Source: Obrimoposthia wandeli (taxonomy: Eukaryota). From it: 64,000 nucleotides of DNA. This document shows positions 20,032 through 59,399 of this stretch, piece after piece; the stretch's first letter is position 1, and each line of letters starts with the position of its first letter. The notes under the pieces were generated by a model, which was not told the origin of the DNA, did not search any database, and saw only the letters and a list, made by a program, of their open reading frames with translations. Location of the stretch: the NCBI GenBank assembly GCA_977020255.1, contig CDROCS010002708.1:248001-312000 (forward strand), read 5' to 3'. The position numbers and the translations under genes were made by a program.

Positions 20032-20104
20032 CTGAAAATAGAAACAAGAATTGATGTCAGAATTTATTACAAGGTAATTAACTGCAAAAGTTGTGTTACT
20101 ATCA

Positions 20105-20485
20105 TAATTTAACCAATTTCACAATTTAACCAATTTCATAATTTAACCAATTTCACAATTTAACCAATTTCCTAATTTAACCAATTTCCTAATTTAACCA
20201 ATTTCATAATTTAACCAATTTCACAATTTAATCAATTTCATAATTTAACCAATTTTACAATTTAACCAATTTCATAATTTAACCAATTTCCTAATTTAAC
20301 CAATTTCACAATTTCCTAATTTAACCAATTTCCTAATTTAACCAATTTCACAATTTAACCAATTTCCTAATTTAACCAATTTCCTAATTTAACCAATTTC
20401 ACAATTTAATCAATTTCATAATTTAACCAATTTCACAATTTAATCAATTTCATAATTTAACCAATTTCATAATTTAACCAATTTC
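20105..20485. repeat. 18-bp minisatellite (AATTTAACCAATTTC + AC/AT/CT + A), about 21 units
   Basis: Directly visible tandem array with three main variants. Confidence 0.95.
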
Positions 20486-21288
20486 GATGAAGTTTGTCGA
20501 GAGAATCCGCAAGACGTAGCTTCTCAGATATCATTTCCTCGAATTCAAACATCATGCACAGAGCAAGGTCAGAAAAATATCCACCAGTTTCTTCCTCTTG
20601 TGAACAATTAAAGAACACCTTGGATAATAACCCTCTTTTTAACAAAAATTTTAAAGCTGAAATATGTTGTGACGGTGAAATTGTGGCGCTGCTATTTTAT
20701 TCTCAAACTTTTGTTGGTAAAATTCAGAGTTTTGAATCAATATGCTATGACGGAACATTTTAAATTGTTCCACAAATTTTTAGTCAGATATTTATTATTT
20801 TTGTAAAATTTGGACCAAGATTTCTACCAGTATTCTTCATTTTAATGAAATCAAAGCTCAGATCAAATTATATGTTGGTAATCAACCAAATCAAAGACAT
20901 GGTTTCAAGTTTTAATCCTTTATCATCCATCGGAGATTTTGAGAGCTCAAGTCTGAAGGCATCCAAGCAATGCTTTTCTCAACTGATTGCACAAGGGTGT
21001 TTTTCCCATTTTCGACAGGCTAACATCCGTAAACTTTGTGAAATGGGCCTCAGGAATTTTTATAAAATTAATAATAAAAAAGCCAACCAGTGGTTCCCAC
21101 TCATCATGGGTCTTCAATGTCTCCCAAGCAGCCAAAATATAGATTTTTATACTCAAATCACTCAGTTTAAGCCAGGAAACACAAGTCAAATTACAAAAAT
21201 TAATATGTATTTAGCTTATTATGAAAGGAATTGGCTGTCAAATACACCAATGACAGACCAAATACACCAAAATCGTGACTGCAGTTAA
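20486..21288 (+). pseudogene. MULE/Mutator DDE transposase remnant
   Basis: MHRARSEKYPP; DGTF*IVPQIFSQI; GDFESSSLKA...GCFSHFRQANIRK. These are MULE motifs (DGTFK, DFE, CxFHxxQ). In-frame stop at 20761-20763. Confidence 0.9.
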
Positions 21289-25476: not shown

Positions 25477-25739
25477 TAGCAAAGGACTATATCTTAAATA
25501 CTGTATCTTTTTTAAGATTTTTATTATATTGAGTTATGTTTTCTATTGTAAACATAATTCAAAAGTTTCAAATTCCACAAACACAATATATATGCATACA
25601 TGGGGATTTACAAACAAATATTGTTGGTACAATATTAGTGACATGTATTTATAACCTTATGTAAGTTACGAAAAGTACAGTCCTAAATCTTATATCTATT
25701 GTGAAATAAAAACTGTTAAAAAAATGATATATTTTTAAA

Positions 25740-26589
25740 TTTGAACTAACAGTCAATTTTTCTATTTTGACACTGGTACGTGCTACATTTTTTTGGGCTT
25801 CTTCCAATCTCTGTCTCAAAGTTTTCGTGGCTAAGCAACAACCGACTGATCGAGTAAATTATCTCTTCTTGAATCCCAATCGGTATCTGCCACCACTGTT
25901 AGGATTCACAGGGTGCTTTTTACTATGTTCAACACCCTATTCACATTCTTGCAGAACGACAAGATTCTTTCAGACGATTTCTATAAATATTGGTTACTTA
26001 ATGGCTTTGAGTGTCACTTTATTGATCGGCACATAAGCTCAACTGATACTTTGCCCTGCCTTGAGGCAGCCAAGTCATTCGCAAATGTTATGGTCTTCAT
26101 CTATGTAAACCAACAATCAAGTAGGTTGTTGATTTAATTCAGCACAGTTAAAAGACAGTACATCTCTCTTGAGAAGCCAATATTGAAATAGTAGACTTTC
26201 GTCGTGTGCATCAGTATCCAAGGATTTCGATTAACCAACCATTTGTGTATCCATCTTATCGATTTAGAGCTAATGCTCATTTTTACTAGTTAAAGGATTA
26301 GCTCATATTTTAATACTTTATTAAACGATTTAACATAGTCAATCAGTGTGACTACAGTTTTGTTTCGACCCTGAAAGAAGTCCTTTACATTCTGCGACAG
26401 TCTGAGCAATTGATCATTCATTGACATCCTCGATCTGAAGCAAGTCTTTCTAGGACACAGGAGTCCCCCACTCTCTACGAAGTACATTAGCCGGTGGTTG
26501 AGTACTCTTTCCATTCACCAAGGTATGGTATTGTTAAGGGTAATCAGAATATATTATGCAGTGTACTTCGAATCTTTTCCCTTTTAGAG
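25740..26589 (-). pseudogene. LINE reverse transcriptase remnant, split by the 14-kb element
   Basis: MERVLNHRLMYFVESGGLL...FRSRMS..DQLLRL...TLIDYVKSFNKV and SIRWIHKWLVNR are RT domain 2-3 motifs. Confidence 0.85.
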
Positions 26590-26602
26590 GTAGGGAGTAG
26601 GT

Positions 26603-26860
26603 GGAAGGATGGAGTCTAAGCCAATTTACCCCCCCCCCCCCTAAAGGGTGTCACTCCATAAGGATGTCACATCATAAAATATGTCTTGCCACACCATAAG
26701 GGTATATGTTGCCTCACCTTCGGTGACCCAACATATACCCTTATGGTATGGCAAGACACCTTTTATGGTGTGACACCCTTATGGAGTGACACCCTTTAGG
26801 AGGGAGGCGGGAGGCGGGGAGGGGAGGAGAGGGGTAAATTGGCTTAGACTCCATCCTTCC
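26603..26860. other. Terminal imperfect palindrome (hairpin) of the left TIR
   Basis: GGAAGGATGGAGTCTAAGCCAATTTACCCC...TCACC-TTC-GGTGA...GGGGTAAATTGGCTTAGACTCCATCCTTCC, loop at 26719-26721. Confidence 0.95.
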
Positions 26861-26902
26861 TTGATATACTACTATGGTCGTCCATAGTTTAAAGGGTCAA
26901 TT

Positions 26903-27125
26903 GGCTTAGTCTCCACCCTTCTTTTTGAGATATACCACTATGAAAGGGTAAAGTGGCTTAGTCTCCACCCTTCTTTTTGAGATATACCACTATGAAAGGG
27001 TAAAGTGGCTTAGTCTCCACCCTTCTTTTTGAGATATACCACTATGAAAGGGTAAAGTGGCTTAGTCTCCACCCTTCTTTTTGAGATATATCACTATGAA
27101 AGGGTAAAGTGGCTTAGTCTCCATC
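26903..27125 (+). repeat. 52-bp subterminal tandem repeat, 4 full units plus a partial one
   Basis: GGCTTAGTCTCCACCCTTCTTTTTGAGATATACCACTATGAAAGGGTAAAGT starts at 26903, 26955, 27007, 27059 and 27111 (partial). The right TIR (about 40295-40465) has 3 full inverted units. Confidence 0.95.
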
Positions 27126-27689
27126 CATCTTTTAGTGATCTAGTCTCCACCCTTCTTTTTGTGATCTAGTCCATAATGAAAATTTATGATAAAGTTCACA
27201 CTTAACAATTAAGAATGTATGACGTAATCATACACACACTATTCTATGTGAAAATCAAGGCTAAAGTTCACTCTTATCAGTTAAGGAATGTGGTTTTTAA
27301 CACACACACTATTCTATGTGAAAGTTTAGATCAAATTATTTTCCTAGGTTTTTTCACATTTATAGAATTATGATAAAATTTCTTTAAATAACTTCAATTA
27401 TATATTAAAATAAAATAAAATAAGAAAGAAGTCAGAGAATAATACAAAATTAAACACATTTATTATGTAATTTCATAATATCATCTTCAAACTTAAGTGA
27501 ATAACATTTACAAAGTAAGAAAGTCCATTCTTTATACATTCTTTTCGTTTCAACGACTAAGTTACAACGGAATTAATAGAAAATTAGTAAAAATATTAAT
27601 TTATTTGAATATTTGAATGAGAGTTTGAATAAATGAGAGGTAGAATGAATGTAAATGAATAAAATTATGCATGCAAGTATGAATGTCAT

Positions 27690-30600
27690 TTACAAGTAAG
27701 AGGGTTTAGCAAGTGAATGTAATTTAAAAATAAGAGTGTCGATAGTTTGATTGAATGCAAGTGTAATTTAGACTATAAGTAAATTAAAATAGAGTTTTTG
27801 TTGAATAAATTATAGTTAGATTGAATGCAAGTATGACGAGCAAGTGATTGATAGTTTGAATTTTCAATACAAGTAAGTGGGTTTAGCAAGTGAATGTAAT
27901 TTTAAAAAATAAGAGTGTCGATAGTTTGATTGAATGCAAGTGTAATTTAGACTATAAGTAAATTAAAATAGAGTTTTTGTTGAATAAATTATAGTTAGAT
28001 TGAATGCAAGTATGACGAGCAAGTGTTTGATAGTTTGAATTTTCAATACAAGTAAGTGGGTTTAGCAAGTGAATGTAATTTTAAAAATAAGAGTGTCGAT
28101 AGTTTGATTGAATGCAAGTGTAATTTAGACTATAAGTAAATTAAAATAGAGTTTTTGTTGAATAAATTATAGTTAGATTGAATGCAAGTATGACGAGCAA
28201 GTGATTGATAGTTTGAATTTTCAATACAAGTAAGTGGGTTTAGCAAGTGAATGTAATTTTAAAAATAAGAGTGTCGATAGTTTGATTGAATGCAAGTGTA
28301 ATTTAGACTATAAGTAAATTAAAATAGAGTTTTTGTTGAATAAATTATAGTTAGATTGAATGCAAGTATGACGAGCAAGTGTTTGATAGTTTGAATTTTC
28401 AATACAAGTAAGTGGGTTTAGCAAGTGAATGTAATTTTAAAAAATAAGAGTGTCGATAGTTTGATTGAATGCAAGTGTAATTTAGACTATAAGTAAATTA
28501 AAATAGAGTTTTTGTTGAATAAATTATAGTTAGATTGAATGCAAGTATGACGAGCAAGTGATTTGATAGTTTGAATTTTCAATACAAGTAAGTGGGTTTA
28601 GCAAGTGAATGTAATTTTAAAAAATAAGAGTGTCGATAGTTTGATTGAATGCAAGTGTAATTTAGACTATAAGTAAATTAAAATAGAGTTTTTGTTGAAT
28701 AAATTATAGTTAGATTGAATGCAAGTATGACGAGCAAGTGATTGATAGTTTGAATTTTCAATACAAGTAAGTGGGTTTAGCAAGTGAATGTAATTTTAAA
28801 AAATAAGAGTGTCGATAGTTTGATTGAATGCAAGTGTAATTTAGACTATAAGTAAATTAAAATAGAGTTTTTGTTGAATAAATTATAGTTAGATTGAATG
28901 CAAGTATGACGAGCAAGTGTTTGATAGTTTGAATTTTCAATACAAGTAAGTGGGTTTAGCAAGTGAATGTAATTTTAAAAAATAAGAGTGTCGATAGTTT
29001 GATTGAATGCAAGTGTAATTTAGACTATAAGTAAATTAAAATAGAGTTTTTGTTGAATAAATTATAGTTAGATTGAATGCAAGTATGACGAGCAAGTGTT
29101 TGATAGTTTGAATTTTCAATACAAGTAAGTGGGTTTAGCAAGTGAATGTAATTTTAAAAAATAAGAGTGTCGATAGTTTGATTGAATGCAAGTGTAATTT
29201 AGACTATAAGTAAATTAAAATAGAGTTTTTGTTGAATAAATTATAGTTAGATTGAATGCAAGTATGACGAGCAAGTGTTTGATAGTTTGAATTTTCAATA
29301 CAAGTAAGTGGGTTTAGCAAGTGAATGTAATTTTAAAAAATAAGAGTGTCGATAGTTTGATTGAATGCAAGTGTAATTTAGACTATAAGTAAATTAAAAT
29401 AGAGTTTTTGTTGAATAAATTATAGTTAGATTGAATGCAAGTATGACGAGCAAGTGATTGATAGTTTGAATTTTCAATACAAGTAAGTGGGTTTAGCAAG
29501 TGAATATAATTTTAAAAAATAAGAGTGTCGATAGTTTGATTGAATGCAAGTGTAATTTAGACTATAAGTAAATTAAAATAGAGTTTTTGTTGAATAAATT
29601 ATAGTTAGATTGAATGCAAGTATGACGAGCAAGTGATTTGATAGTTTGAATTTTCAATACAAGTAAGTGGGTTTAGCAAGTGAATGTAATTTTAAAAAAT
29701 AAGAGTGTCGATAGTTTGATTGAATGCAAGTGTAATTTAGACTATAAGTAAATTAAAATAGAGTTTTGTTGAATAAATTATAGTTAGATTGAATGCAAGT
29801 ATGACGAGCAAGTGTTTGATAGTTTGAATTTTCAATACAAGTAAGTGGGTTTAGCAAGTGAATGTAATTTTAAAAAATAAGAGTGTCGATAGTTTGATTG
29901 AATGCAAGTGTAATTTAGACTATAAGTAAATTAAAATAGAGTTTTTGTTGAATAAATTATAGTTAGATTGAATGCAAGTATGACGAGCAAGTGATTGATA
30001 GTTTGAATTTTCAATACAAGTAAGTGGGTTTAGCAAGTGAATGTAATTTTAAAAAATAAGAGTGTCGATAGTTTGATTGAATGCAAGTGTAATTTAGACT
30101 ATAAGTAAATTAAAATAGAGTTTTTGTTGAATAAATTATAGTTAGATTGAATGCAAGTATGACGAGCAAGTGTTTGATAGTTTGAATTTTCAATACAAGT
30201 AAGTGGGTTTAGCAAGTGAATGTAATTTTAAAAAATAAGAGTGTCGATAGTTTGATTGAATGCAAGTGTAATTTAGACTATAAGTAAATTAAAATAGAGT
30301 TTTTGTTGAATAAATTATAGTTAGATTGAATGCAAGTATGACGAGCAAGTGTTGATAGTTTGAATTTTCAATACAAGTAAGTGGGTTTAGCAAGTGAATG
30401 TAATTTTAAAAAATAAGAGTGTCGATAGTTTGATTGAATGCAAGTGTAATTTAGACTATAAGTAAATTAAAATAGAGTTTTTGTTGAATAAATTATAGTT
30501 AGATTGAATGCAAGTATGACGAGCAAGTGTTTGATAGTTTGAATTTTCAATACAAGTAAGTGGGTTTAGCAAGTGAATGTAATTTTAAAAAATAAGAGTG

Positions 30601-33076
30601 TCGATAGTTTGATTGAATGCAAGTGTAATTTAGACTATAAGTAAATTAAAATAGAGTTTTTGTTGAATAAATTATAGTTAGATTGAATGCAAGTATGACG
30701 AGCAAGTGATTGATAGTTTGAATTTTCAATACAAGTAAGTGGGTTTAGCAAGTGAATGTAATTTTAAAAAATAAGAGTGTCGATAGTTTGATTGAATGCA
30801 AGTGTAATTTAGACTATAAGTAAATTAAAATAGAGTTTTTGTTGAATAAATTATAGTTAGATTGAATGCAAGTATGACGAGCAAGTGATTGATAGTTTGA
30901 ATTTTCAATACAAGTAAGTGGGTTTAGCAAGTGAATGTAATTTTAAAAAATAAGAGTGTCGATAGTTTGATTGAATGCAAGTGTAATTTAGACTATAAGT
31001 AAATTAAAATAGAGTTTTTGTTGAATAAATTATAGTTAGATTGAATGCAAGTATGACGAGCAAGTGTTTGATAGTTTGAATTTTCAATACAAGTAAGTGG
31101 GTTTAGCAAGTGAATGTAATTTTAAAAAATAAGAGTGTCGATAGTTTGATTGAATGCAAGTGTAATTTAGACTATAAGTAAATTAAAATAGAGTTTTTGT
31201 TGAATAAATTATAGTTAGATTGAATGCAAGTATGACGAGCAAGTGATTGATAGTTTGAATTTTCAATACAAGTAAGTGGGTTTAGCAAGTGAATGTAATT
31301 TTAAAAAATAAGAGTGTCGATAGTTTGATTGAATGCAAGTGTAATTTAGACTATAAGTAAATTAAAATAGAGTTTTTGTTGAATAAATTATAGTTAGATT
31401 GAATGCAAGTATGACGAGCAAGTGTTTGATAGTTTGAATTTTCAATACAAGTAAGTGGGTTTAGCAAGTGAATGTAATTTTAAAAAATAAGAGTGTCGAT
31501 AGTTTGATTGAATGCAAGTGTAATTTAGACTATAAGTAAATTAAAATAGAGTTTTTGTTGAATAAATTATAGTTAGATTGAATGCAAGTATGACGAGCAA
31601 GTGATTTGATAGTTTGAATTTTCAATACAAGTAAGTGGGTTTAGCAAGTGAATGTAATTTTAAAAAAATAAGAGTGTCGATAGTTTGATTGAATGCAAGT
31701 GTAATTTAGACTATAAGTAAATTAAAATAGAGTTTTTGTTGAATAAATTATAGTTAGATTGAATGCAAGTATGACGAGCAAGTGTTTGATAGTTTGAATT
31801 TTCAATACAAGTAAGTGGGTTTAGCAAGTGAATGTAATTTTAAAAAATAAGAGTGTCGATAGTTTGATTGAATGCAAGTGTAATTTAGACTATAAGTAAA
31901 TTAAAATAGAGTTTTTGTTGAATAAATTATAGTTAGATTGAATGCAAGTATGACGAGCAAGTGTTTGATAGTTTGAATTTTCAATACAAGTAAGTGGGTT
32001 TAGCAAGTGAATGTAATTTTAAAAAATAAGAGTGTCGATAGTTTGATTGAATGCAAGTGTAATTTAGACTATAAGTAAATTAAAATAGAGTTTTGTTGAA
32101 TAAATTATAGTTAGATTGAATGCAAGTATGACGAGCAAGTGATTGATAGTTTGAATTTTCAATACAAGTAAGTGGGTTTAGCAAGTGAATGTAATTTTAA
32201 AAATAAGAGTGTCGATAGTTTGATTGAATGCAAGTGTAATTTAGACTATAAGTAAATTAAAATAGAGTTTTTGTTGAATAAATTATAGTTAGATTGAATG
32301 CAAGTATGACGAGCAAGTGATTTGATAGTTTGAATTTTCAATACAAGTAAGTGGGTTTAGCAAGTGAATGTAATTTTAAAAATAAGAGTGTCGATAGTTT
32401 GATTGAATGCAAGTGTAATTTAGACTATAAGTAAATTAAAATAGAGTTTTTGTTGAATAAATTATAGTTAGATTGAATGCAAGTATGACGAGCAAGTGAT
32501 TGATAGTTTGAATTTTCAATACAAGTAAGTGGGTTTAGCAAGTGAATATAATTTTAAAAAATAAGAGTGTCGATAGTTTGATTGAATGCAAGTGTAATTT
32601 AGACTATAAGTAAATTAAAATAGAGTTTTTGTTGAATAAATTATAGTTAGATTGAATGCAAGTATGACGAGCAAGTGATTGATAGTTTGAATTTTCAATA
32701 CAAGCAGATAGTTTGATTGAATGCAAGTGTAATTTAGACTATAAGTAAATTAAAATAGAGTTTTTGTTGAATAAATTATAGTTAGATTGAATGCAAGTAT
32801 GACGAGCAAGTGTTTGATAGTTTGAATTTTCAATACAAGTAAGTGGGTTTAGCAAGTGAATGTAATTTTAAAAAATAAGAGTGTCGATAGTTTGATTGAA
32901 TGCAAGTGTAATTTAGACTATAAGTAAATTAAAATAGAGTTTTTGTTGAATAAATTATAGTTAGATTGAATGCAAGTATGACGAACAAGTGATTGATAGT
33001 TTGAATTTTCAATACAAGTAAGTGGGTTTAGCAAGTGAATGTAATTTTAAAAAAATAAGAGTGTCGATAGTTTGAT
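27690..33076 (+). repeat. Satellite 1: about 179-bp unit, about 30 highly homogeneous copies
   Basis: gtcgatagtttgattgaatgcaagtgtaatttagactataag... recurs at 27738, 27917, 28095 ... 33063. One internally deleted unit near 32700. Confidence 0.97.
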
Positions 33077-33369
33077 TTTTTTTTTTAAATTACTTGATAT
33101 TTTTGCCATTGTCCGTTTAATATAATATGAATATTCAATTTATTTCTTCAAAAATTCATTTTTTTTATATGTTAAATAATATTTCTTTACCACATTATTG
33201 TGGTTTTTATCAAGTGATTTTAACTTTAAACTATAAAAATATTTTAATTATAAAGTTAGTTGCTGTACCCCGCCCACTGTATATAACATAAATTTCAAAT
33301 ATAAAGTACTATTAAGTTTATTATTTCGAATAGTAAATGATTTTTTCGAGTTATTTAATTTTGTTTACT

Positions 33370-36300
33370 AGACATTCGAAAATTTACTTGTAAACTACAA
33401 TATTTATTTGTTGTTGTATATATTTAGTTTAAAATGTTGTAAGTTATTACTTTAATATAATTTTCAACAAAAACTTCAAGTAGTTTACTTATTAAACATA
33501 AGTTTAATGTTTTGTACAATAAATTGACTTGTAAACATAATTTATTTTGATATATTTTCAATTTAATATGTTGTAAGTTATTACTTTAATATAATTTACA
33601 ACAAAAACTTCAAGTAGTTTACTTATTAAACATAAGTTTAATGTTTTGTACAATAAATTGACTTGTAAACATAATTTATTTTGATATATTTTCAATTTAA
33701 TATGTTGTAAGTTATTACTTTAATATAATTTACAACAAAAACTTCTAGTAATTTACTTGTAAACTACAATATGTATTTGTTGTTGTATATATTTAGTTTA
33801 AAATGTTGTAAGTTATTACTTTAATATAATTTTCAACAAAAATTTCAAGTAGTTTACTTATTAAACATAAGTTTAATGTTTTGTACAATAAATTGACTTG
33901 TAAACATAATTTATTTTTGATATATTTTCAATTTAATATGTTGTAAGTTATTACTTTAATATAATTTACAACAAAAACTTCAAGTAGTTTACTTATTAAA
34001 CATAAGTTTAATGTTTTGTACAATAAATTGACTTGTAAACATAATTTATTTTGATATATTTTCAATTTACTATGTTGTAAGTTATTACTTTAATATAATT
34101 TACAACAAAAACTTCAAGTAATTTACTTGTAAACTACAATATTTATTTGTTGTTGTATATATTTAGTTTAAAATGTTGTAAGTTATTACTTTAATATAAT
34201 TTTCAACAAAAATTTCAAGTAGTTTACTTATTAAACATAAGTTTAATGTTTTGTACAATAAATTGACTTGTAAACATAATTTATTTTTGATATATTTTCA
34301 ATTTAATATGTTGTAAGTTATTACTTTAATATAATTTACAACAAAAACTTCAAGTAGTTTACTTATTAAACATAAGTTTAATGTTTTGTACAATAAATTG
34401 ACTTGTAAACATAATTTATTTTGATATATTTTCAATTTACTATGTTGTAAGTTATTACTTTAATATAATTTACAACAAAAACTTCAAGTAATTTACTTGT
34501 AAACTACAATATTTATTTGTTGTTGTATATATTTAGTTTAAAATGTTGTAAGTTATTACTTTAATATAATTTTCAACAAAAACTTCAAGTAGTTTACTTA
34601 TTAAACATAAGTTTAATGTTTTGTACAATAAATTGACTTGTAAACATAATTTATTTTGATATATTTTCAATTTAATATGTTGTAAGTTATTACTTTAATA
34701 TAATTTACAACAAAAACTTCAAGTTGTTTACTTATTAAACTTAAGTTTAATGTTTTGTACAATAAATTGACTTGTAAACATAATTTATTTTGATATATTT
34801 TCAATTTAATATGTTGTAAGTTATTACTTTAATATAATTTACAACAAAAACTTCAAGTTGTTTACTTATTAAACATAAGTTTAATGTTTTGTACAATAAA
34901 TTGACTTGTAAACATAATTTATTTTGATATATTTTCAATTTAATATGTTGTAAGTTATTACTTTAATATAATTTACAACAAAAACTTCAAGTAGTTTACT
35001 TATTAAACATAAGTTTAATGTTTTGTACAATAAATTGACTTGTAAACATAATTTATTTTGATATATTTTCAATTTAATATGTTGTAAGTTATTACTTTAA
35101 TATAATTTACAACAAAAACTTCTAGTAATTTACTTGTAAACTATAATATTTATTTGTTGTTGTATATATTTAGTTTAAAATGTTGTAAGTTATTACTTTA
35201 ATATAATTTTCAACAAAAATTTCAAGTAGTTTACTTATTAAACATAAGTTTAATGTTTTGTACAATAAATTGACTTGTAAACATAATTTATTTTTGATAT
35301 ATTTTCAATTTAATATGTTGTAAGTTATTACTTTAATATAATTTACAACAAAAACTTCTAGTAATTTACTTGTAAACTATAATATTTATTTGTTGTTGTA
35401 TATATTTAGTTTAAAATGTTGTAAGTTATTACTTTAATATAATTTACAACAAAAACTTCAAGTAGTTTACTTATTAAACATAAGTTTAATGTTTTGTACA
35501 ATAAATTGACTTGTAAACATAATTTATTTTTTGATATATTTTCAATTTAATATGTTGTAAGTTATTACTTTAATATAATTTTCAACAAAAACTTCAAGTA
35601 GTTTACTTATTAAACATAAGTTTAATGTTTTGTACAATAAATTGACTTGTAAACATAATTTATTTTGATATATTTTCAATTTAATATGTTGTAAGTTATT
35701 ACTTTAATATAATTTACAACAAAAAAAAAACTTCAAGTAGTTTACTTATTAAACATAAGTTTAATGTTTTGTACAATAAATTGACTTGTAAACATAATTT
35801 ATTTTGATATATTTTCAATTTAATATGTTGTAAGTTATTACTTTAATATAATTTACAACAAAAACTTCAAGTAGTTTACTTACTAAACATAAGTTTAATG
35901 TTTTGTACAATAAATTGACTTGTAAACATAATTTATTTTGATATATTTTCAATTTAATATGTTGTAAGTTATTACTTTAATATAATTTACAACAAAAACT
36001 TCTAGTAATTTACTTGTAAACTACAATATTTATTTGTTGTTGTATATATTTAGTTTAAAATGTTGTTAGTTATTACTTTAATATAATTTTCAACAAAAAC
36101 TTCGAGTAGTTTACTTATTAAACATAAGTTTAATGTTTTGTACAATAAATTGACTTGTTAACATAATATATTTATGCATATATTAACTTTAATATGTTGT
36201 AACTTATTACTTTAATATAATTTTCAACAAAAACGTCAAGTAGTTTACTTATTAATCATAAGTTTAATGTTTTGTACAATAATTTGACTTGTAAACATAA

Positions 36301-39300
36301 TTTATTTTGATATATTTTCAATTTAATATGTTGTAAGTTATTACTTTAATATAATTTACAACAAAAACTTCAAGTAATTTACTTGTAAACTACAATATTT
36401 ATTTGTTGTTGTATATATTTAGTTTAAAATGTTGTAAGTTATTACTTTAATATAATTTTCAACAAAAATTTCAAGTAATTTACTTAATAATCATAATATT
36501 TATGATTTGATCAATAAATTGACTTGTAAACATAATATAATTTGCATATTTTCAATTTAATATATTGTAAGTTATTACTATAATATTACATTACATAAAA
36601 AAAGTAATTGATAGTTTACTATCGTTTACAATAAATTTATGCATATATTCACTTTAATATGTTGTAAGTTATTACTTTATTATAATTTTCAACAAAAAAA
36701 AACTTCAAGTAGTTTACTTATTAAACATAAGTTTAATGTTTTGTACAATAAATTGATTTGTAAACATAATTTATTTTGGTATATTTTCAATTTATATGTT
36801 GTAAGTTATTACTTTAATATAATTTACAACCAAAACTTCAAGAAATTTACTTAATAATCATAATTTTAATGATTTGATCAATAAATTGACTTGTAAACAT
36901 AATATAATTTGCATATTTTCAATTTAACACGTTGTAAGTTAATACTGTAATATTTCATTACATAAAAAGTAATTCATAGTTTACTGTCGTTTACTATAAA
37001 TTTACTTGTAAACATAATATATTTATGCATTATTCACTTTAATACGTTTTAAGTTATTAGAATTTGTGTTCTTGTATTCAATGATTAACTTTTATTAAAC
37101 TATTATATAACATTGACACTCTTATTTTTAAAAAATTGACTTGTAAACATAATTTATTTTGATATATTTTCAATTTAATATGTTGTAAGTTATTACTTTA
37201 ATATAATTTACAACAAAAACTTCTAGTAATTTACTTGTAAACTACAATATTTATTTGTTGTTGCATATATTTAGTTTAAAATGTTGTAAGTTATTACTTT
37301 AATATAATTTTCAACAAAAATTTCAAGTAGTTTACTTATTAAACATAAGTTTAATGTTTTGTACAATAAATTGACTTGTAAACATAATTTATTTTTGATA
37401 TATTTTCAATTTAATATGTTGTAAGTTATTACTTTAATATAATTTACAACAAAAACTTCAAGTAGTTTACTTATTAAACATAAGTTTAATGTTTTGTACA
37501 ATAAATTGACTTGTAAACATAATTTATTTTGATATATTTTCAATTTACTATGTTGTAAGTTATTACTTTAATATAATTTACAACAAAAACTTCAAGTAAT
37601 TTACTTGTAAACTACAATATTTATTTGTTGTTGTATATATTTAGTTTAAAATGTTGTAAGTTATTACTTTAATATAATTTTCAACAAAAACTTCAAGTAG
37701 TTTACTTATTAAACATAAGTTTAATGTTTTGTACAATAAATTGACTTGTAAACATAATTTATTTTGATATATTTTCAATTTAATATGTTGTAAGTTATTA
37801 CTTTAATATAATTTACAACAAAAAACTTCAAGTAGTTTACTTATTAAACTTAAGTTTAATGTTTTGTACAATAAATTGACTTGTAAACATAATTTATTTT
37901 GATATATTTTCAATTTAATATGTTGTAAGTTATTACTTTAATATAATTTACAACAAAAAACTTCAAGTAGTTTACTTATTAAACTTAAGTTTAATGTTTT
38001 GTACAATAAATTGACTTGTAAACATAATTTATTTTGATATATTTTCAATTTAATATGTTGTAAGTTATTACTTTAATATAATTTACAACAAAAACTTCAA
38101 GTTGTTTACTTATTAAACATAAGTTTAATGTTTTGTACAATAAATTGACTTGTAAACATAATTTATTTTGATATATTTTCAATTTAATATGTTGTAAGTT
38201 ATTACTTTAATATAATTTACAACAAAAAACTTCAAGTAGTTTACTTATTAAACTTAAGTTTAATGTTTTGTACAATAAATTGACTTGTAAACATAATTTA
38301 TTTTGATATATTTTCAATTTAATATGTTGTAAGTTATTACTTTAATATAATTTACAACAAAAACTTCAAGTTGTTTACTTATTAAACATAAGTTTAATGT
38401 TTTGTACAATAAATTGACTTGTAAACATAATTTATTTTGATATATTTTCAATTTAATATGTTGTAAGTTATTACTTTAATATAATTTACAACAAAAACTT
38501 CAAGTAGTTTACTTATTAAACTTAAGTTTAATGTTTTGTACAATAAATTGACTTGTAAACATAATTTATTTTGATATATTTTCAATTTAATATGTTGTAA
38601 GTTATTACTTTAATATAATTTACAACAAAAACTTCAAGTAGTTTACTTATTAAACATAAGTTTAATGTTTTGTACAATAAATTGACTTGTAAACATAATT
38701 TATTTTGATATATTTTCAATTTAATATGTTGTAAGTTATTACTTTAATATAATTTACAACAAAAACTTCTAGTAATTTACTTGTAAACTACAATATTTAT
38801 TTGTTGTTGTATATATTTAGTTTAAAATGTTGTAAGTTATTACTTTAATATAATTTTCAACAAAAATTTCAAGTAGTTTACTTATTAAACATAAGTTTAA
38901 TGTTTTGTACAATAAATTGACTTGTAAACATAATTTATTTTGATATATTTTCAATTTAATATGTTGTAAGTTATTACTTTAATATAATTTACAACAAAAA
39001 CTTCAAGTAATTTACTTGTAAACTACAATATTTATTTTGTTGTTGTATATATTCAGTTTAAAATGTTGTAAGTTAATACTTTAATATAATTTACAACCAA
39101 ATCTTCAAGTAATTTACTTAATAATCATAATATTAATGATTTGATCAATAAATTGACTTGTAAACATAATATAATTTGCATATTTTCAATTTAATATATT
39201 GTAAGTTATTACTATAATATTACATTACATAAAAAAAAAGTAATTGATAGTTTACTATCGTTTACAATAAATTTATGCATATATTCACTTTAATATGTTG

Positions 39301-39400
39301 TAAGTTATTACTTTATTATAATTTTCAACAAAAACTTCAAGTAGTTTACTTATTAAACATAAGTTTAATGTTTTGTACAATAAATTGACTTGTAAACATA
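33370..39400. repeat. Satellite 2: very AT-rich array of about 134-bp (A) and about 101-bp (B) monomers
   Basis: A starts acttcaagtagtttacttattaaac and B starts acttc(a/t)agtaatttacttgtaaact. Order is often A-A-B, with diverged blocks at about 36470-37130 and 39090-39500. Confidence 0.95.
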
Positions 39401-39498
39401 ATATATTTATGCATTATTCACTTTAATACGTTTTAAGTTATTAGAATTTGTGTTCTTGTATTCAATGATTAACTTTTATTAAACTATTATATAACATT

Positions 39499-40747
39499 GA
39501 CACTCTTATTTTTAAAAATTACATTCACTTGCTAAACCCACTTACTTGTATTGAAAATTCAAACTATCAATCACTTGTTCGTCATACTTGCATTCAATCT
39601 AACTATAATTTATTCAACAAAAACTCTATTTTAATTTACTTATAGTCTAAATTACACTTGCATTCAATCAAACTATCGACACTCTTATTTTTAAATTACA
39701 TTCACTTGCTAAACCCTCTTACTTGTAAATGACATTCATACTTGCATGCATAATTTTATTCATTTACATTCATTCTACCTCTCATTTATTCAAACTCTCA
39801 TTCAAATATTCAAATAAATTAATATTTTTACTAATTTTCTATTAATTCCGTTGTAACTTAGTCGTTGAAACGAAAAGAATGTATAAAGAATGGACTTTCT
39901 TACTTTGTAAATGTTATTCACTTAAGTTTGAAGATGATATTATGAAATTACATAATAAATGTGTTTAATTTTGTATTATTCTCTGACTTCTTTCTTATTT
40001 TATTTTATTTTAATATATAATTGAAGTTATTTAAAGAAATTTTATCATAATTCTATAAATGTGAAAAAAAACCTAGGAAAATAATTTGATCTAAACTTTC
40101 ACATAGAATAGTGTGTGTGTTAAAAACCACATTCCTTAACTGATAAGAGTGAACTTTAGCCTTGATTTTCACATAGAATAGTGTGTGTATGATTACGTCA
40201 TACATTCTTAATTGTTAAGTGTGAACTTTATCATAAATTTTCATTATGGACTAGATCACAAAAAGAAGGGTGGAGACTAGATCACTAAAAGATGGATGGA
40301 GACTAAGCCACTTTACCCTTTCATAGTGGTATATCTCAAAAAGAAGGGTGGAGACTAAGCCACTTTACCCTTTCATAGTGGTATATCTCAAAAAGAAGGG
40401 TGGAGACTAAGCCACTTTACCCTTTCATAGTGGTATATCTCAAAAAGAAGGGTGGAGACTAAGCCAATTGACCCTTTAAACTATGGACGACCATAGTAGT
40501 ATATCAAGGAAGGATGGAGTCTAAGCCAATTTACCCCCCCCCCCCTAAAGGGTGTCACTCCATAAGGATGTCACATCATAAAAGGTGTCTTGCCATACCA
40601 TAAGGGTATATGTTGGGTCACCGAAGGTGAGGCAACATATACCCTTATGGTGTGGCAAGACATATTTTATGATGTGACATCCTTATGGAGTGACACCCTT
40701 TAGGGGGGGGGGGGTAAATTGGCTTAGACTCCATCCTTCCACCTACT
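39499..40747 (-). repeat. Right terminal inverted repeat (about 1.25 kb)
   Basis: Matches the left TIR and includes about 1.2 inverted units of the 179-bp satellite at its inner end. Confidence 0.95.
40508..40740. other. Terminal imperfect palindrome (hairpin) of the right TIR
   Basis: Same palindrome, with a TCACC-GAA-GGTGA loop at 40623-40625. Confidence 0.95.
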
Positions 40748-40753
40748 GTAGGG

Positions 40754-50800: not shown

Positions 50801-51170
50801 TTATTATATACCGTAGGCACACATTTTGTTTTTATTATAATTATTTGTGTCTCATCAAAATAAAATACAAAATAAAATCAATTTTCATACCGAATTGATT
50901 AAGAATTTTGTGCCATATTAAATATATGTTATATTTTATTCTTTTTTGTCAATGCTGGGTCCAATGTCATAGTTCAGAGAGATACAAAAGAAAGTTTTAT
51001 CAATAAGTTTAAATGAAAATAGTAAAAATTAAAACTAGCTCAACCTTTTCATTCTGAAGCATTTTAAAAGCTTTACCAAATCTATATTTCTTAAATTAAT
51101 TGATTAATTAAAACAATCTTACATTTAAAAAAATTCCTAAAGTTTTACTATACCGAAAATAGTATTCAAC

Positions 51171-51257
51171 CTGAATCGCTCAACATTTTTTGTCTATTCA
51201 GCGTCAATGCCATCACGTGGTCCGACCAAACGGACCGTTTCTGCACGAATCCTTGCC
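51171..51257 (-). CDS. NDUFA10: NDUFA10 exon 2
   Basis: Follows a 42-nt in-frame intron (51258-51299, ctgactcAG acceptor). GQGFVQKRSVWSD corresponds to the conserved GQGVVLERSIFSD. Confidence 0.88.
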
Positions 51258-51299
51258 CTGAGTCAGGCAAATAACATACATTAACCAAAGTAATCCAAC

Positions 51300-51783
51300 C
51301 TGTATTATAGATGTTACACATTGCCTTGCACGTGTTAAAATATCGCCAAAGATAAATATGCTTTTGCAGTAAAAGCGGACGACCATTGTGAATTGGATCT
51401 TTGTCATTAAACAACATCTCCCTAGTATAAACTCGGGAATACGGTGGCAACATGTCATTATATTTGCGCAAATCAACAGGTGCTTTTCCTAGTGGAATCA
51501 CGTGCAAATCCTCTTCCGAAACATCATCCACATACAGCATTCCAAAATAGTCCGCTAACTTCTGAGCCAATTTTCCTTTTCCCGTTCCTACATTACCTTC
51601 CACTGCGATATGTCTGGAATTTTGATCCATCATACCTTGTATGGGATGCGTATGAATATGGGCAGGCCAGTTATAAAAATCAAACAGGTACTTAGGTTTA
51701 ACTTTGTTAGCTACTTCAGGAGTAAACTTATTTTTAAGTGTTCTTACTATAAGAACGCGAGATACATACACATTCCGAAACAT
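51300..51783 (-). CDS. NDUFA10: NADH dehydrogenase 1 alpha subcomplex subunit 10 (dNK fold), exon 1
   Basis: ATG at 51783, Arg-rich presequence, IAVEGNVGTGKGKLA P-loop, LQKHIYLWRY. Donor GTtgga at 51299. Confidence 0.9.
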
Positions 51784-54700
51784 TTTCTAAAATATTAGAA
51801 AAACATTAAATAAAATGTAAATAAATATGATATAAAAGTATTTTTATAAACCTATGTTTAGAGTCGTATTAATATACAGATACATATTCTTAAAAATAAA
51901 ATATATTCCAAACGATTTCCTATAAGAAGGGGAATCAAGAAAATTCCTTTAAATTTCATACTTTAAGTAGAATGTTTTTTATATAAGCAATCTATATATA
52001 TTAAAATTTAGTTGCTTAACGTTTAATTATATATTATCTTTTGGAAATGATATTAATAGTATTTGCATGTATAATGTCAAAATTTTCTAATTCATTATTT
52101 AATATTTTTAGGAATATCGAGATTTCTTTAGAAGTTTATTTGATTGAAATCTAGTTTCCATAGTATACTTATTGCATTATTTTAGTATTAATATTAATTT
52201 TCACATTTTTGTGGTGTGTTAGCTTATTTTTATGTTACTTTTAAAAATAAAAGTATTGACTTGTTAAGAAAAATGTTAAACATTCGTTCAGCCATATGAA
52301 AAACTTTTATTAACGATTAAACAATATATTTTGGAGTTTGATGATATATCATGGAATATTTACTTCGTAAATTTTCTCAAAATTCTTACATTACATCTAT
52401 CAAAAAAGTCCTAATTGTATAACTATTGTTGAAATAATTAGGTTATAATGTAAATAGAATATAGTATATGAAACTTATATACAGTTGAGACCTCTTGAGT
52501 TTTACAACAATAACTTATAAAATCGGTTTAAAATCAAGGCAATGGATTTTATAGTCAAAAATTGCATTACTAAAACAACTAGTAAGACTGGATTTTTAAA
52601 AAATTCAATAGAATAATTTAAAAATTAATATTATTATTAAAGCAACGAAAAAATAGTTCTAAAAAAATATAAGTTAATAATGATTAGGGCTATCTAACAA
52701 TTATGAAAGTTCGATTAAATTTGTACAACACACAACACAACAATAGTTTTAGGGAATATGACGTTATCCTATATACAACTCCTTAACAAATCACAAAAAT
52801 AACCTTCAGAGACTAGGATAGGTAGTAAGCTGTAAGCCCTATCGCTACAAAACTCACGTTGGGGGCCTCCGTACAAGGATTCTAAGTTTTTAAAAAAATA
52901 ATATTAAACTGGTGTCCAAAATGAGGATATCTCATTGGACATAGCAGATTCAGATATAATATATAGATAAGTTGTTGAATAAGTAAGAAGAATAAAAGAA
53001 AAGTGAATTGAGAAAAAAGAATTAATTGAGAATAAGTTACATTGAGAAAAAGGATAACTGAGAATAAGTATAATAAGAATACAAGATAAATTGAGAATAA
53101 ATAAGCGAATAAAGGATTTATAGAGATATAATAAGTGAATTGAATAAGAAAATTGAATAGAGAATAACGGATAATTAAGTGAAATAATAAGTGAATATGT
53201 AAATTGATATAAGAGTTTGATATAAACGAAGAAATGCAGTATAGCGATGAACCGTATTATCTAACATATTATCAAACTGAGAATCAATACTTCCGAAAAG
53301 GACGAGGAAAACATAGAAAAGATTTTAGAATTGAAATTGTATAATTATTAAAATAAAATTAACTATAAATAGAGGACATAAAACCTTGAAATAAGGTTAA
53401 ATAGGAATGAATAAATTAATTTTTTTTTAAGTTAATGTAAAATTGAAATTGGTAAGATCGGAATAAGTTATGGACTTTGAGAGGTCGTGTGTAAGTATAT
53501 AAAAGAATTTAAATTATTAAGAAGGGCCCAAAAAAGATATAATTTGAAGAAGTATTCGCAACTGGTAAAAATCAATTAAGGATAGCAAAAGTGATTTAAT
53601 TTCTTGAGAACGATACAGCAGCAACCGTCTAGAGAACTAAAATGTAAAATTAATAGAAAAATTCCATTTACTAATTACTTACCAGGACTGCGAGCGAAGT
53701 GATTTAACTTCTTGAGAACGGGACAGCAGGCAACCGTTTAGAAAACTGAAGGTAGAATTAATTTAAAAATTCCATTTACTAATTAATTACCAGAACGGCG
53801 AGCGAAATTGATTCATTCTTAGGAATTTTGCATCAATTGAAAAACAAGTTATAAAAGCATCTGCGAGCAAAATTGATTCATTCTCAGGAATTTTGCATCA
53901 ATCGAAAACAAGTTATAACAGCATACATAACAGGAGAGTATAAAAAGAGAAAACAAAAAGCTCAAGAAAAAGATCTTAAAATCGTTGGAGGAACTACCCA
54001 GGCCAAAATTAGAAGATTGATCAGTGTTTGAATTGACCGACGTAAGACACGAAAACGACGTTAGAGGATTCAAGATAATTACTGATTATCCAGGAAGATT
54101 GGTCAGACCGAACAAGCGGGGACCACCAGACACCAGATACCATACACACACACCAGATATCTAACTAAGCGGATCTTTTGAGGACGGAAGCTTGTGACGA
54201 AGGAAACAACCGGACTACGAGTATCAATAACCGCAGATAAATCTAGGTAAGTAAATTAGAAACATTGAAAAAGAAAGCTACATACTTTGTGAGTTTAAAG
54301 TAAAAGAATGTTACATGCTTTGTCAGTTTAAAGTAAAAGAAAGTTATATACTTTATCAGATTAAAGTAAAAGAAATAAACATATTTTATCAATTGGAACT
54401 AGCAAACATTGAAAAAAATGTAAATTTATCCTAAAATAATTGGGGGTTTGACGAGTCAAAGTTAAATAGGAAACTAACAACTAGACAAGCACGTAAAATC
54501 CGATCTCTAACTTACTAGACAGAAAATTAAAATCGATACGTAAAGGGCATCCTCATTTGTGTGAAATTGAATAAAGTGTCATAGGATTAGTTGTCTGTAA
54601 TTTTTAGAAATATAGTTTAGTGTGAAATAAAGAATATATTTTTCCTACAAACAAGTAACGTTACCTTGAATTAACCCACCATAAATCAGAACGATATCAA

Positions 54701-55025
54701 CCCCATTGTACACCACACTACAACAAGGAAACATTGTAATACCTTGTGCACACGACTTTGTACACAATCCACCATACACTAGCACAAAAAACCTCCAGAC
54801 TTGAGACTAAATTAAGTAGGATAAAACCTAAATAGGCCACATACATCTCAGGGCCCTATTGCTACAAAACTCACGTTGGGGGCCTCCATAAGAGGATCTA
54901 TCTGAATCAAAGTATTTCAAATAGAAACCCCAACATTATTGCACAACTACCTGCATTTCCTCACAGTGCGCTTTACTTAAAAGAGCACACAGAACGAGGA
55001 CATCAGATTTGGTGTTTAATACATT

Positions 55026-55682
55026 TTGAATTATTATACAGACTTAACATGGAGTCCACTTAACACGCAACAAGAATCAAGCAATCTGAGTATAGAAGAA
55101 CTCGTGAAGCTGATTCCACAACCAAAGGAATATACAGAATCAGAAGAAGTTGAAGAGTTCCTGCCGAAGATTAGGTCATATTTTGAAATGATATCACTGG
55201 ATATCAGCCAAAGAAATATTCTGATTACAGCATTTATGACCGGGAAATGTCATGAAAAATATGACAAAACAGATGGCAAGAAGAATTATGAAGATAGGCT
55301 TAAAGAAGCATTTGACAAAAAGCTGGATTTAGTAGCATACCTATTCAATGCTTTGAAATACAAGACAGGTTATGATTCCGTCGACACCTTTATTCTGCGT
55401 ATCGAAAAGAATGTGGAAAATGTAATGCAACACAAGATTACGGCCTCCAAATTAACAGAATTCTTGCTAAAATTCTGTATCGATGATGAGTCAATGTCAG
55501 AAGAAATGAACCGAATCGAACTCACTGGTGGCATTTTGAAGATGAAAGCAAAGCCAAGCAACGAAGAAATGGAGACAGAACAAAAAGGACCTACTCCAAC
55601 AAAATTTACCAAGGATATGATGAAGAAATTAGAAGAAAAAATAAGAAGTCAAAAATTGAAAAGCCGATATTTCTTTAAATAA
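55026..55682 (+). pseudogene. Gag-like ORF of the Gypsy remnant
   Basis: 218-codon open frame, charged and helical, directly upstream of protease and RT pieces. The call rests on position rather than on a recognised motif. Confidence 0.55.
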
Positions 55683-56399
55683 TCGAACTTATACTGGAAT
55701 TGTGGCAAATTGAAGACCTGTTTATCAAAATCCAATGAACATGAAGAAAATTCGAGGAACAGCTCAGATAAGGTTTGAAAAGACAAAGAGAAACGAAAAC
55801 TATAAGTGACGACAATGTTATTGCTGCAGTGAGGTTGGACATATAAGACGAGAATGTCCTCACAATCATTGTTCATTCTGCTGACGAAATGGACATGCCA
55901 TCAACCAATACTACCGGAAACTTGATCAAGGTAATAAAGGATACGCAAAAATATGGCTATCAGCGAGATCAGCCACTACCAAATGGAAGTTTAGGACAAG
56001 AGCGAAGATACCAGCGAGATTATGTTCCAGTCCATCAGCTAAAAAATCAGCAGAGATACCGAGGATCTGACCAGAACAAGAAGCCAGTTGCTGTCATGGA
56101 TGACGACTACATGACTGTGGATAAACAGAATCACAGCCAGGCAAAATACAAGTTGGCTCCATCAAACAAGGAAATTATCGGAGCTCTGAATCTAATGTAA
56201 GTAGTTATGTAAATAATTTGAAGACAATTAAGTATGACTGTAATAAAGAATTTATGGATTGTGAGTTTGATTTAAATAGTTTAAATATTAATGTTTTATG
56301 TGATACTGAGAATGGTGAAAATATTAAAATAAATAATGATGAGGTAGATTTTATTGAAAATGATTTAGTTAATGATGTTTTTTTAATTAACAAAAAATA

Positions 56400-56760
56400 T
56401 GATTTAAGTTTTTTAACTGTTGGTTATGATAATAGCGATGGTAGAACGTTCATTAACATTGAGTTGAATAATATAAAAATAAGTTGTTTATTAGATACTG
56501 GTGCTACAGTAAGTGTAATAAGTAAAGATGTTTTAGATATAACTAATTGTAATATGAATAAGATTATGAATTAAAATAACGTTTCATGTGCTAATGGAAG
56601 TAGATTAGAAATATTACGTACATTAAGTATAGCAATAAAACACAAAAATAAAAACATATTTGGATTTTTCTATGTTGCAAAAGAAATTAAATCGTGCATA
56701 ATTTTAGGAATCGATATTTTGGAAAAGTTGAATTTTAAATTAGCCGACTTTGATCGTTTG
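56400..56760 (+). pseudogene. Retroviral-type aspartic protease remnant
   Basis: TFINIELNNIKISCLLDTGATVSVISK (DTG active site) followed by ILGIDIL. Confidence 0.85.
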
Positions 56761-56879
56761 AGTTGATGAAAGATTATTAAATGAAGTAAATAATTTAGAA
56801 AATAAATTTTGTTTGTCAGTAAGTCAAGATGATCGTTGGAAAACATTTTTGAAAACGTGTACCGAAAATATGAAGGAAG

Positions 56880-57233
56880 TCGTACCAATTTGTAAAGAAT
56901 TTAGAAATATATTTATGAAAGATAAATGGGACATATGAAAACCGGATGTACTAAAACATAGAATATTGACTGAATGTACTCCAATAAATATCAAACCTCG
57001 TCGACAACCAATGCATTATGAAACGAAGATACTGAAAATCTTGAAGAAAATGGAATAATATCTAAATGTGAATCACCGTTTCAAAAATTAATGACAATTA
57101 TCTTAAAAGATATGATTTGGACTGAAGCTTTAGTATATTTAGATGATATTTTAATATTTTCTAATTCTATAGAAGAACATAAAATAAGATTGCGAAAATT
57201 ATTTGGACGGATAGCAGAGTCAAGACTTAAGAA
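56880..57233 (+). pseudogene. Reverse transcriptase remnant (internally deleted)
   Basis: HRILTECTPINIKPRRQP and EALVYLDDILIFSNSIEEHKIRLRKLFGRI (YLDD). Confidence 0.88.
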
Positions 57234-57673
57234 AGGGCGTACGTTCAACGGTTACTCGTGCGGGACTTGTTATTGTTTGACTCAATGGATTAATATTTTC
57301 TCTGATTGTTTCTATTATAATTCATATTAGCAAATAGATTACTAACAAAACCTATATGTGTAATAGCTCTATTTTATTATTTTTATTATTCATTTTCCAT
57401 AAAATCATTATCAAAATATTGTTTATACTGCTTTGTTCTCAGAGACAAAGACGTCACATGGGAACCATGTGGACACTTAAACACATGTATTAAATGTTCA
57501 GAACGTATTATTTCATTTCCATATTGCAAGACATTTATTATTAGAAGAGTAAGAAATATCAGATTTCACGAGATAAAAAATTAACCAAAGAGATCACATG
57601 CGATCTAAAAATAGATTTTCAAATAGTATAAATAGAACAAACCTGTTTATAATAATCAGAAATATTACTTCAC

Positions 57674-58629: not shown

Positions 58630-58983
58630 TATATAAGAGTAAAACCGTCAACTCTGAATTGAAAAATGGAGAAAATCACATCACTGGCAGCAGCAATATC
58701 ATCAACAGCAGCAACATTACCAACAGCAGCAACATTACTACCAACAACAACAGCGATGAGAAGAGAAAAAACTATTGATGAAGTCAAAATAGAAGAAGTT
58801 ATTATAGAGAAGACAATTATTGAAGAAGATAATAAACGATTAGATTTTCTTTAAATGCTTTGGCTTTTATGGAACCCACAATAGCTCATGCTTCTAGTAG
58901 GGAGATGAACCACATGACCCATCTTTTTGATACATTGTTCAATGATAGATTTACTCAACTTAATGTAGAAAAATTCAACAAAA

Positions 58984-59399
58984 ATGAGTGAAATTTCAGT
59001 AAATCAATTATATATTGGTAATTATCGAGATGCTTTTGATGAAACTATACTTTTGAAATCCGAATTCACTCATGTAATCAAAACATCTATAGTGGATAAG
59101 ATATCTTATAAGAAATTAAAGTATACTTATGTTTTTGTAAACTCAAAATTAAGAGAAATAATAATTACATATTATAAACAGACTAATAATATATTTAAAG
59201 AAACTATCAAAACTGGTGGTAAGATTTTAGTGTGTGATCATTATGGTAGTTTACATGATGCTTGCATTGTTATTGCATTTTATCTCCTTCAATGGGTGTT
59301 AGAGCTGCTTTCAATATTTTTAAATCTAAACGGAGTATTGCTGCTCTTAATGAAGTTATGCTTAATCAAATACGTATTTTTAATCGTTATGATATATAA
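58984..59399 (+). pseudogene. Atypical dual-specificity phosphatase-fold gene, catalytic motif degenerate, one frameshift
   Basis: LYIGNYRDAFD...THVI, GGKILVCDHYGSLHDACIVIAFYL in place of VLVHCxxGxSRS, then shifted MGVRAAFNIFKSKRSIAALNEVMLNQI (DSP C-terminal helix). Confidence 0.75.

Follow-up and report, generated by a model that had tools for sequence, protein, structure and literature searches.

A gene-less, satellite-filled Polinton family in Obrimoposthia wandeli and its possible size constraint

Polintons (Mavericks) are described as replicating from their terminal inverted repeats (TIRs) by a protein-primed mechanism and integrating by a retrovirus-like integrase (PMC8097293, PMC6431247). 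The group whose pPolB bears an Endonuclease VII domain has 6-bp target duplications, AG...CT termini and TIRs of 0.8–1.3 kb, and Polinton hallmark genes encode pPolB, an rve integrase with a chromodomain, an A32-like ATPase and a jelly-roll-like capsid protein (as outlined in PMC8097293 and 10.1101/2023.08.22.554363). Here we describe a 14,152 bp insertion with such ends in Obrimoposthia wandeli. It lies in a window of 64,000 nucleotides (the whole stretch analysed, contig CDROCS010002708.1, positions 248,001 to 312,000; coordinates below are those of the window) and shares the duplication, termini and TIRs of that group, but it has none of those genes; they are carried instead by a coding family, the helper, in the same genome.

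Partial parallels exist elsewhere. Helper-dependent (gutless) adenovirus vectors likewise consist of ends only with non-coding filler, and they use protein-primed replication supplied by a helper; their size window is given as 75–105%, genomes below or above which rearrange towards wild-type size (PMC4189039). They are engineered, do not integrate and have demonstrated packaging, whereas packaging of the present family is a proposal. Begomovirus alpha-, beta- and non-coding satellites are natural non-coding parasites in which an A-rich "stuffer" has been proposed to meet the encapsidation size (PMC4756297); unlike the element described here they are circular single-stranded DNAs of 0.7–1.4 kb, unintegrated, largely unrelated to their helper, and with a filler that is not tandem satellite. 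Tetris, a Drosophila foldback element, and the Helitron/Helentron elements are non-autonomous carriers and spreaders of tandem repeats (PMC4079207, PMC8268682), but they have other enzymes and ends and are much shorter, and their arrays also form free satellite blocks, whereas the monomers listed here lie mostly beside element ends. A term look-up in two reviews on transposon-derived satellites (PMC12628747, PMC9659126) gave no mention of Polintons or Mavericks. A literature search over titles and the openings of abstracts returned no satellite-filled, helper-length, gene-less Polinton with compensating arrays; repeat catalogues in genome-paper supplements, which lie outside that scope, could bear on novelty. 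Gene-less non-autonomous Polintons with helper TIRs are reportedly found in Repbase and in the 2006 work of Kapitonov and Jurka, and these may lower the novelty of the present family. An exact-phrase literature search gave a single paper, on Tlr1 (PMC5499653).

The window element and its coding helper

The features of the insertion are as follows.

26590..26595 (no strand): left copy of the 6-bp target-site duplication, exact match to 40748-40753
26596..40747: Polinton-ended insertion, 14,152 bp, 23% GC, satellite-filled and gene-less
26596..27922 (+): left TIR, 1327 bp, running 1.3 units into the 179-bp satellite
26603..26860 (+): long sub-terminal hairpin, an imperfect palindrome, common to the coding family (self-inverted matches in coding copies)
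26891..27133 (+): 52-bp sub-terminal tandem repeat, 4.7 units; its motif recurs in both hairpin arms
27481..27543 (+): 63-bp piece, the last helper-derived sequence, 98% match to bases 1107-1169 of a coding element, counted from the polymerase-side end
27544..27690 (+): TIR extension of the gene-less family only, unmatched in the coding copy compared
27691..33077 (+): 179-bp satellite array, ~30 units (30 unit starts, 99% matches, GC skew +0.61)
33078..33380 (+): unique spacer of ~300 bp between both arrays
33381..39443 (+): 134-bp-family satellite, 134/135/101-bp units in 235/370-bp higher-order units, 16-18% GC, ~6.1 kb
39496..39695 (-): inverted 179-bp remnant inside the right TIR, one unit here and up to 26 in relatives
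39496..40747 (-): right TIR, 1252 bp, with 52-bp repeats at 40287-40477 and hairpin at 40508-40740
40748..40753 (no strand): right copy of the 6-bp target-site duplication, exact match to 26590-26595

A sequence-only reading of the window had named AGTAG...CTACT termini at 26596 and 40747, an exact 6-bp duplication, near-identical TIRs of ~1.3 kb, ~11.5 kb of interior tandem arrays and no coding capacity, and all of this holds. The two 6-mers are identical, the TIRs align with 7 mismatches, their 79 gap columns being due to a G-rich tract and a single 52-bp unit, the arrays sum to 11,650 bp with the inverted remnant included (82% of the element), and the longest stop-free frame has 79 codons. 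An ORF (open reading frame) scan of the element found no pPolB, integrase, packaging ATPase or jelly-roll capsid gene, and an Rfam search of it gave no match. The TIR tip, AGTAG-, is close to the (AGT)2 motif but inexact, with the AG start and CT end present. The hairpin begins 7 bases inside the element end and has arms of ~115 bp, with folding energies of -117 kcal/mol on the left and -134 on the right (z=-29.7), and the 52-bp repeats next to it are candidate protein-binding sites. The 134-bp-family array holds one internal block duplication.

The genome searched is a 1.35-Gb assembly of 6,912 contigs. Ten TIR-paired copies were read, of which eight are coding (11,849–12,238 bp, 98.3–99.5% alike) and two satellite-filled, and nine of the ten have a 6-bp duplication; elements with a coding marker measure 11.7–12.6 kb in 17 of 18 cases. 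A terminal 21-mer has 2,925 exact matches genome-wide and a capsid-gene 22-mer 2,050, so that the helper, at up to ~1.8% of the assembly, is far more abundant than the vertebrate Polintons (median 8, maximum 287; PMC8097293), and at 12.1 kb it is shorter than the 13–25 kb quoted for Polintons. Pfam matches among the helper ORFs include an rve integrase (E 9e-10), joined to a weakly scoring chromodomain, a Pox_A32 ATPase (E 3e-6) and, inside the polymerase ORF, an Endonuclease VII domain. In the ESM Atlas the polymerase ORF resembles pPolB and the major-capsid ORF a double jelly-roll protein, both at 0.98, a score without an E-value that we treat as a lead; a PDB sequence search with the capsid-like ORF returned nothing, and the presumed minor capsid ORF has no Pfam match. 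The helper further differs from described Polintons in its terminal hairpin with ~115-bp arms, in lacking a recognised protease, and in a TBP-like protein (Pfam TBP, E 6.5e-12; copy on contig C2738, 4910-5416) encoded beside the polymerase promoter region.

The first 295 bases are 98–99% alike in coding and gene-less copies, which bears out the Polinton origin that the sequence-only reading had proposed. Helper and window element share only TIR bases 1-887 and, beyond them at the polymerase-side end, the 63-bp piece listed above; one helper end, the polymerase-side one, has been copied to both termini. The window element is thus almost certainly a non-autonomous derivative of the resident ~12.1-kb Polinton. 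Its interior is filled with two AT-rich satellites of which the helper has none: four coding copies gave only chance-level 25-30-mer matches. An intact helper had been predicted, and a coding family with the same termini is indeed present, but frame breaks occur in all coding copies read (some may be assembly errors). The autonomous size of 15–20 kb that was expected does not apply here, since the resident helper has 12.1–12.2 kb and the window copy reaches 116% of that. On contig C47, beyond the hybrid element described below, and in one further region, there are fragments of a second, diverged Polinton family, which match the helper capsid region at 67%; this family also has putative polymerase-like peptides.

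A young family of gene-less copies and hybrids

A 23-mer from the family-specific TIR extension has 2,638 exact matches, from which we estimate ~1,300 gene-less elements. All 40 scored spacer matches are 98–100% alike, and a spacer 24-mer with at most one mismatch has 532 matches. To sample this spacer type, we took 30 of 38 additional top-ranking spacer matches; the window copy and two copies read before brought the regions mapped to 33, of which 27 are complete, two were finished later, one has a length taken from its end coordinates, one has a noisy end, one is truncated and one has another architecture. Each of the 27 complete copies has an exact 6-bp duplication at its own site, as do the two finished later (16,210 and 23,374 bp; 29/29 in total), and exact duplications also flank 10/10 short copies and 5/6 copies with variant ends. 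The predictions of multiple insertions at different sites and of satellites carried to new loci are therefore borne out. Three pure architectures were read (spacer and junction, two inverted spacers, two junctions), in all of which the 179-bp arrays are directed inward from both ends.

Left-right TIR substitutions amount to 0.29% in the window subfamily and 0.5% in shorter subfamilies, so all gene-less subfamilies are young, in agreement with the recent activity originally claimed. The non-array sequence of the window subfamily is near star-like, with one variable site in the spacer and four in the unique part of the TIR; array lengths therefore diverged after the burst began, and they change far faster than point mutations accumulate, since near star-like copies have very different arrays. 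The 179-bp right arm ranges from 0.2 to 4.7 kb and the 134-bp block from 1.0 to 14.5 kb, a 14- to 20-fold variation. The 179-bp unit is 83% similar over 30 bases to the adjoining TIR extension, and a local origin of this satellite is possible but unproven; a stretch of 40 bases is similar between the 179-bp and 134-bp units. No free satellite block outside elements was found among the first 100 monomers listed for each satellite; most of these lie beside element markers or contig ends, and a few short monomer clusters on contigs C3, C17 and C30 were matched to no element. Satellite probe totals of 10,059 and 20,201 matches leave no room in the assembly for megabase arrays of these variants; unassembled arrays lie outside the scope of such counts. 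As a rough estimate, family satellite DNA is of the order of 1% of the assembly.

Recombination with the helper is seen in hybrids (contigs C137, C138, C117 and C47) that keep the ATPase-integrase-capsid arm, with its 6.7 kb of helper genes, and carry satellites in place of the polymerase arm. Of the four copies read, three have an exact duplication and one a duplication with a single mismatch. One breakpoint is common to three read copies, and its linker has 51 matches; the fourth copy has a different breakpoint. Seven linker-bearing hybrids (three read, four assigned by probe) span 10.3–14.4 kb with a median of 11.1, six of them at 10.3–11.8 kb, and the second, independent hybrid type has 10.9 kb. 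Gene-less copies that are otherwise identical show mosaics of hairpin variants, which suggests that ends have been exchanged with several helper subfamilies. Where both ends of an element could be read they have the same loop variant, the outcome predicted if one end is the template for the other. A parvovirus-type rolling hairpin with hairpin transfer was considered and rejected, because all 73 ends that could be scored, out of 81, have the hairpin in a single orientation, with no flip-flop; a hairpin that is shared with the helper and does not flip-flop is therefore not a parvovirus-type end.

Because termini are identical and 6-bp duplications occur at many sites, we propose that the protein-primed polymerase and retrovirus-like integrase of the helper copy and integrate the gene-less elements in trans, and the shared ends, mosaic hairpin variants and hybrids read in the assembly agree with this. 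The hairpin just inside the ends may be a signal for replication or for the integrase.

Contigs C1-C420 served for a position-unbiased census, with 123 of 359 ends left unpaired. Only two of its 118 paired elements are the size (<1 kb) of miniature inverted-repeat elements (MITEs), in line with the earlier claim that the window element had kept near its full length where such elements usually shrink to MITEs. Miniature end-to-end forms of 130–212 bp are rare (C272:26351-26562, C316:37437-37585, C492:315183-315312, C492:333026-333157). Contigs C518 and C92 each have one element whose flanks are mutually reverse-complement with no direct duplication, either a mis-assembly or an inverted rearrangement, and on C3609 a gene-less copy has a partial rearranged copy nested in its 134-bp array.

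Copy length and its possible causes

The young-subfamily length set (n=30) has a median of 11.8 kb, 0.97 of the helper length, with an interquartile range (IQR) of 11.3–13.0 and a range of 7.6–23.4 kb; 22 of the 30 fall within 75–108% of the helper, close to the adenovirus vector window, and one lies below. For comparison, intact vertebrate Mavericks are given a length variation of ~10% (PMC8097293). The summed 179-bp arrays and the 134-bp array compensate each other (Spearman -0.50, p=0.005), and the IQR of total length is narrower than in permutations (p=0.004). Both tails are thin, with 1 copy seen against 4.0 expected below 9.1 kb (p=0.011) and 2 against 6.0 above 14.5 kb (p=0.002), and below 13 kb rho is -0.77 against -0.35 in an equally truncated null (p=0.007). 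When possible sisters are grouped and the giant 23,374-bp copy is left out, rho is -0.59 (p=0.035). In hybrids the shortening of the arrays roughly equals the length of the genes kept, and no copy in any of four length sets is below 35% of the helper. We lean, by a small measure, towards a loose size constraint on gene-less copies: an extrachromosomal phase would loosely favour molecules of near-helper length, so that as one array grows the other shrinks. Of the possible filters encapsidation would be the likeliest, the alternative being an optimum size for replication or integration; packaging as the cause is a tentative proposal, made by analogy with the adenovirus vectors.

Several results weigh against a strict size rule, and the statistical support for the stuffer idea is real but partial. 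Members of the n=30 set were picked for their spacer similarity, and the nested, the truncated and the other-architecture copy were left out. Seven of its members exceed 108% of the helper, among them the window copy, which is atypical within its subfamily in having the longest left and shortest right 179-bp array. The giant copy belongs to the same subfamily and has a perfect duplication; with it included the Pearson coefficient is -0.22 (p=0.24), the variance permutation gives p=0.12, and grouping possible sisters (14 groups) gives rho -0.27 (p=0.35). The position-unbiased census has a median of 10.4 kb (4.8–14.8, n=25) and a marker-pair sample one of ~9.2 kb (n=25), with 10 and 11 of the 25 copies, respectively, below 75% of the helper, so that 40–44% of unbiased copies fall under the adenovirus-like window. 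Compensation in these sets is not significant, with rho -0.23 (n=14; two inverted-spacer rows, which inflate it to -0.48, are left out) and -0.15 (n=9). The clustering of lengths near the helper that had been forecast is accordingly found in the young subfamily and not in the family as a whole, which spans 4.7–23.4 kb, and copies of 4.7–8.6 kb have duplications and near-identical TIRs and are nearly as young; these may have moved at that size or have lost length after insertion. Long copies are under-counted, because several gene-less copies run into contig ends (on C49, for instance, one takes up 17 kb or more before the contig begins), and simulated loss of the longest 30–40% brings the p value to 0.03–0.08. 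No protease was recognised by Pfam in nine helper ORFs scanned (three small ORFs were left out), and what points to a size filter or to packaging comes from assembled DNA, not from a virion, episome or transcript. The defective-interfering or satellite-virus-like element of the sequence-only reading is borne out in part, by the length pattern, but these data show no capsid, virion or interference with the helper.

These observations would fit an explanation with no size selection at all, in which each subfamily took over the length of its founder, by chance near 12 kb in this case, and slippage and unequal exchange let the arrays drift. What looks like compensation would then come from the common ancestry of sister copies, from recombination between copies that conserves length and from the loss of long copies in assembly. 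The wide family range, the lack of significant compensation in the unbiased sets and in the grouped test with the giant copy, and the contig breaks inside arrays all favour it, as do the older subfamilies (3–7% diverged), which are shorter yet young with duplications, and the descent of single-breakpoint hybrids from one event. It accounts less well for the thin lower tail and for a trend that survives truncation at 13 kb, since an assembly ceiling alone gives neither, or for copies that are almost star-like in their non-array sequence. Nor does it explain why two hybrid types and three pure architectures share the 8–14 kb band, or why MITE-sized forms are so few when ordinary non-autonomous DNA transposons are mostly <2 kb (PMC3014272). 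We regard it as possible but doubtful. A role of the satellites as functional cis-elements (protein binding, easily melted DNA or chromatin anchors), with the total amount of array under selection and not genome length, is unlikely. The inward direction and strong strand skew of the 179-bp arrays, the retention of both satellites in every architecture read, hybrids too, and the similarity between the two units would suit it, and the same objection to a pure "stuffer" role has been raised for begomovirus satellites (PMC4756297); on the other hand the helper moves with no satellites, array sizes vary 14- to 20-fold, and the arrays of hybrids are reduced by about the coding length they retain.

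The remaining explanations concern the nature of the element itself. Modular TIRs whose internal tandem repeats run into satellite arrays resemble those of Tetris (PMC4079207), so a Foldback/Galileo- or Tetris-like cut-and-paste element unrelated to Polintons had to be considered; it is refuted by the near-identity of the terminal 295 bases to elements that bear Polinton genes, and the 6-bp duplications and the gene-bearing hybrids agree in leaving it practically no probability. A single insertion with arrays grown in place, or an artefact of assembly, is hardly more credible. Array unit numbers do rest on the assembly, and some copies have noisy ends, but the same architecture with duplications at 30 other loci refutes single-copy status, and the left junction is confirmed on one error-free 1,084-base contig, from an independent assembly of a public run (possibly of the source sample), that reaches 26 bases into the element.

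Returning to the loose size constraint, its most specific form would make the family a natural, endogenous "gutless vector" that must fill the helper capsid to move, whose stuffer tunes itself to capsid size and which seeds satellites at more than 1,000 loci. We put this forward as a possibility short of even odds.

The insertion site, neighbouring sequence and significance

The interrupted host sequence (26200..26595, - strand) is an old, stop-ridden dispersed repeat: the left flank has 15 other loci at 65–85% identity, and only this flank matched other genomic copies. The sequence-only reading had the insertion interrupt a LINE RT frame. Joining the flanks does reproduce its peptide, with the duplicated 6-mer in frame, but stops lie on either side of the frame and the longest open piece of it had no Pfam match, so that the claim was overstated; the repeat is probably a non-LTR retroelement remnant, the "LINE RT" label coming from a motif. 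That the element arrived as one insertion stands because of the target duplication, not the reading frame. In four runs of one sample no joint or fork indicating an empty-site allele was found at the left junction (contigs cannot show absence), and the read depth of the flank in these runs is half that of the neighbouring stretch.

The left flank also has a very short, very high-depth repeat (25532-25567). Elsewhere in the window there are a 17-bp tandem repeat of 23 units (20102-21288) next to part of a MULE transposase (Pfam E 5e-4, below cut-off), a deoxynucleoside-kinase-fold exon at 51166-51786 (-) (Pfam dNK E 3e-4, below cut-off), possibly of a complex I subunit, and a dual-specificity-phosphatase-like frame at 58969-59442 (+) (Pfam E 6e-5, below cut-off). 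The broken gag/protease/RT-like frames at 55020-57330 (+) are probably those of an LTR retrotransposon, and 2297-2626 (+) is a putative tektin-like exon.

Whether animal Polintons form particles is a long-standing open question, and PMC8097293 gives particles as not observed. Since no genes oblige a gene-less passenger to remain long, any size filter should show directly in its length, and ~1,300 gene-less copies, together with the hybrids and an abundant young helper, make the particle question testable. If the size constraint is real and due to packaging, the gene-less length distribution would be genomic evidence for Polinton transposition through virions. Independently of packaging, it is through this family that a virus-like element spreads satellite DNA.

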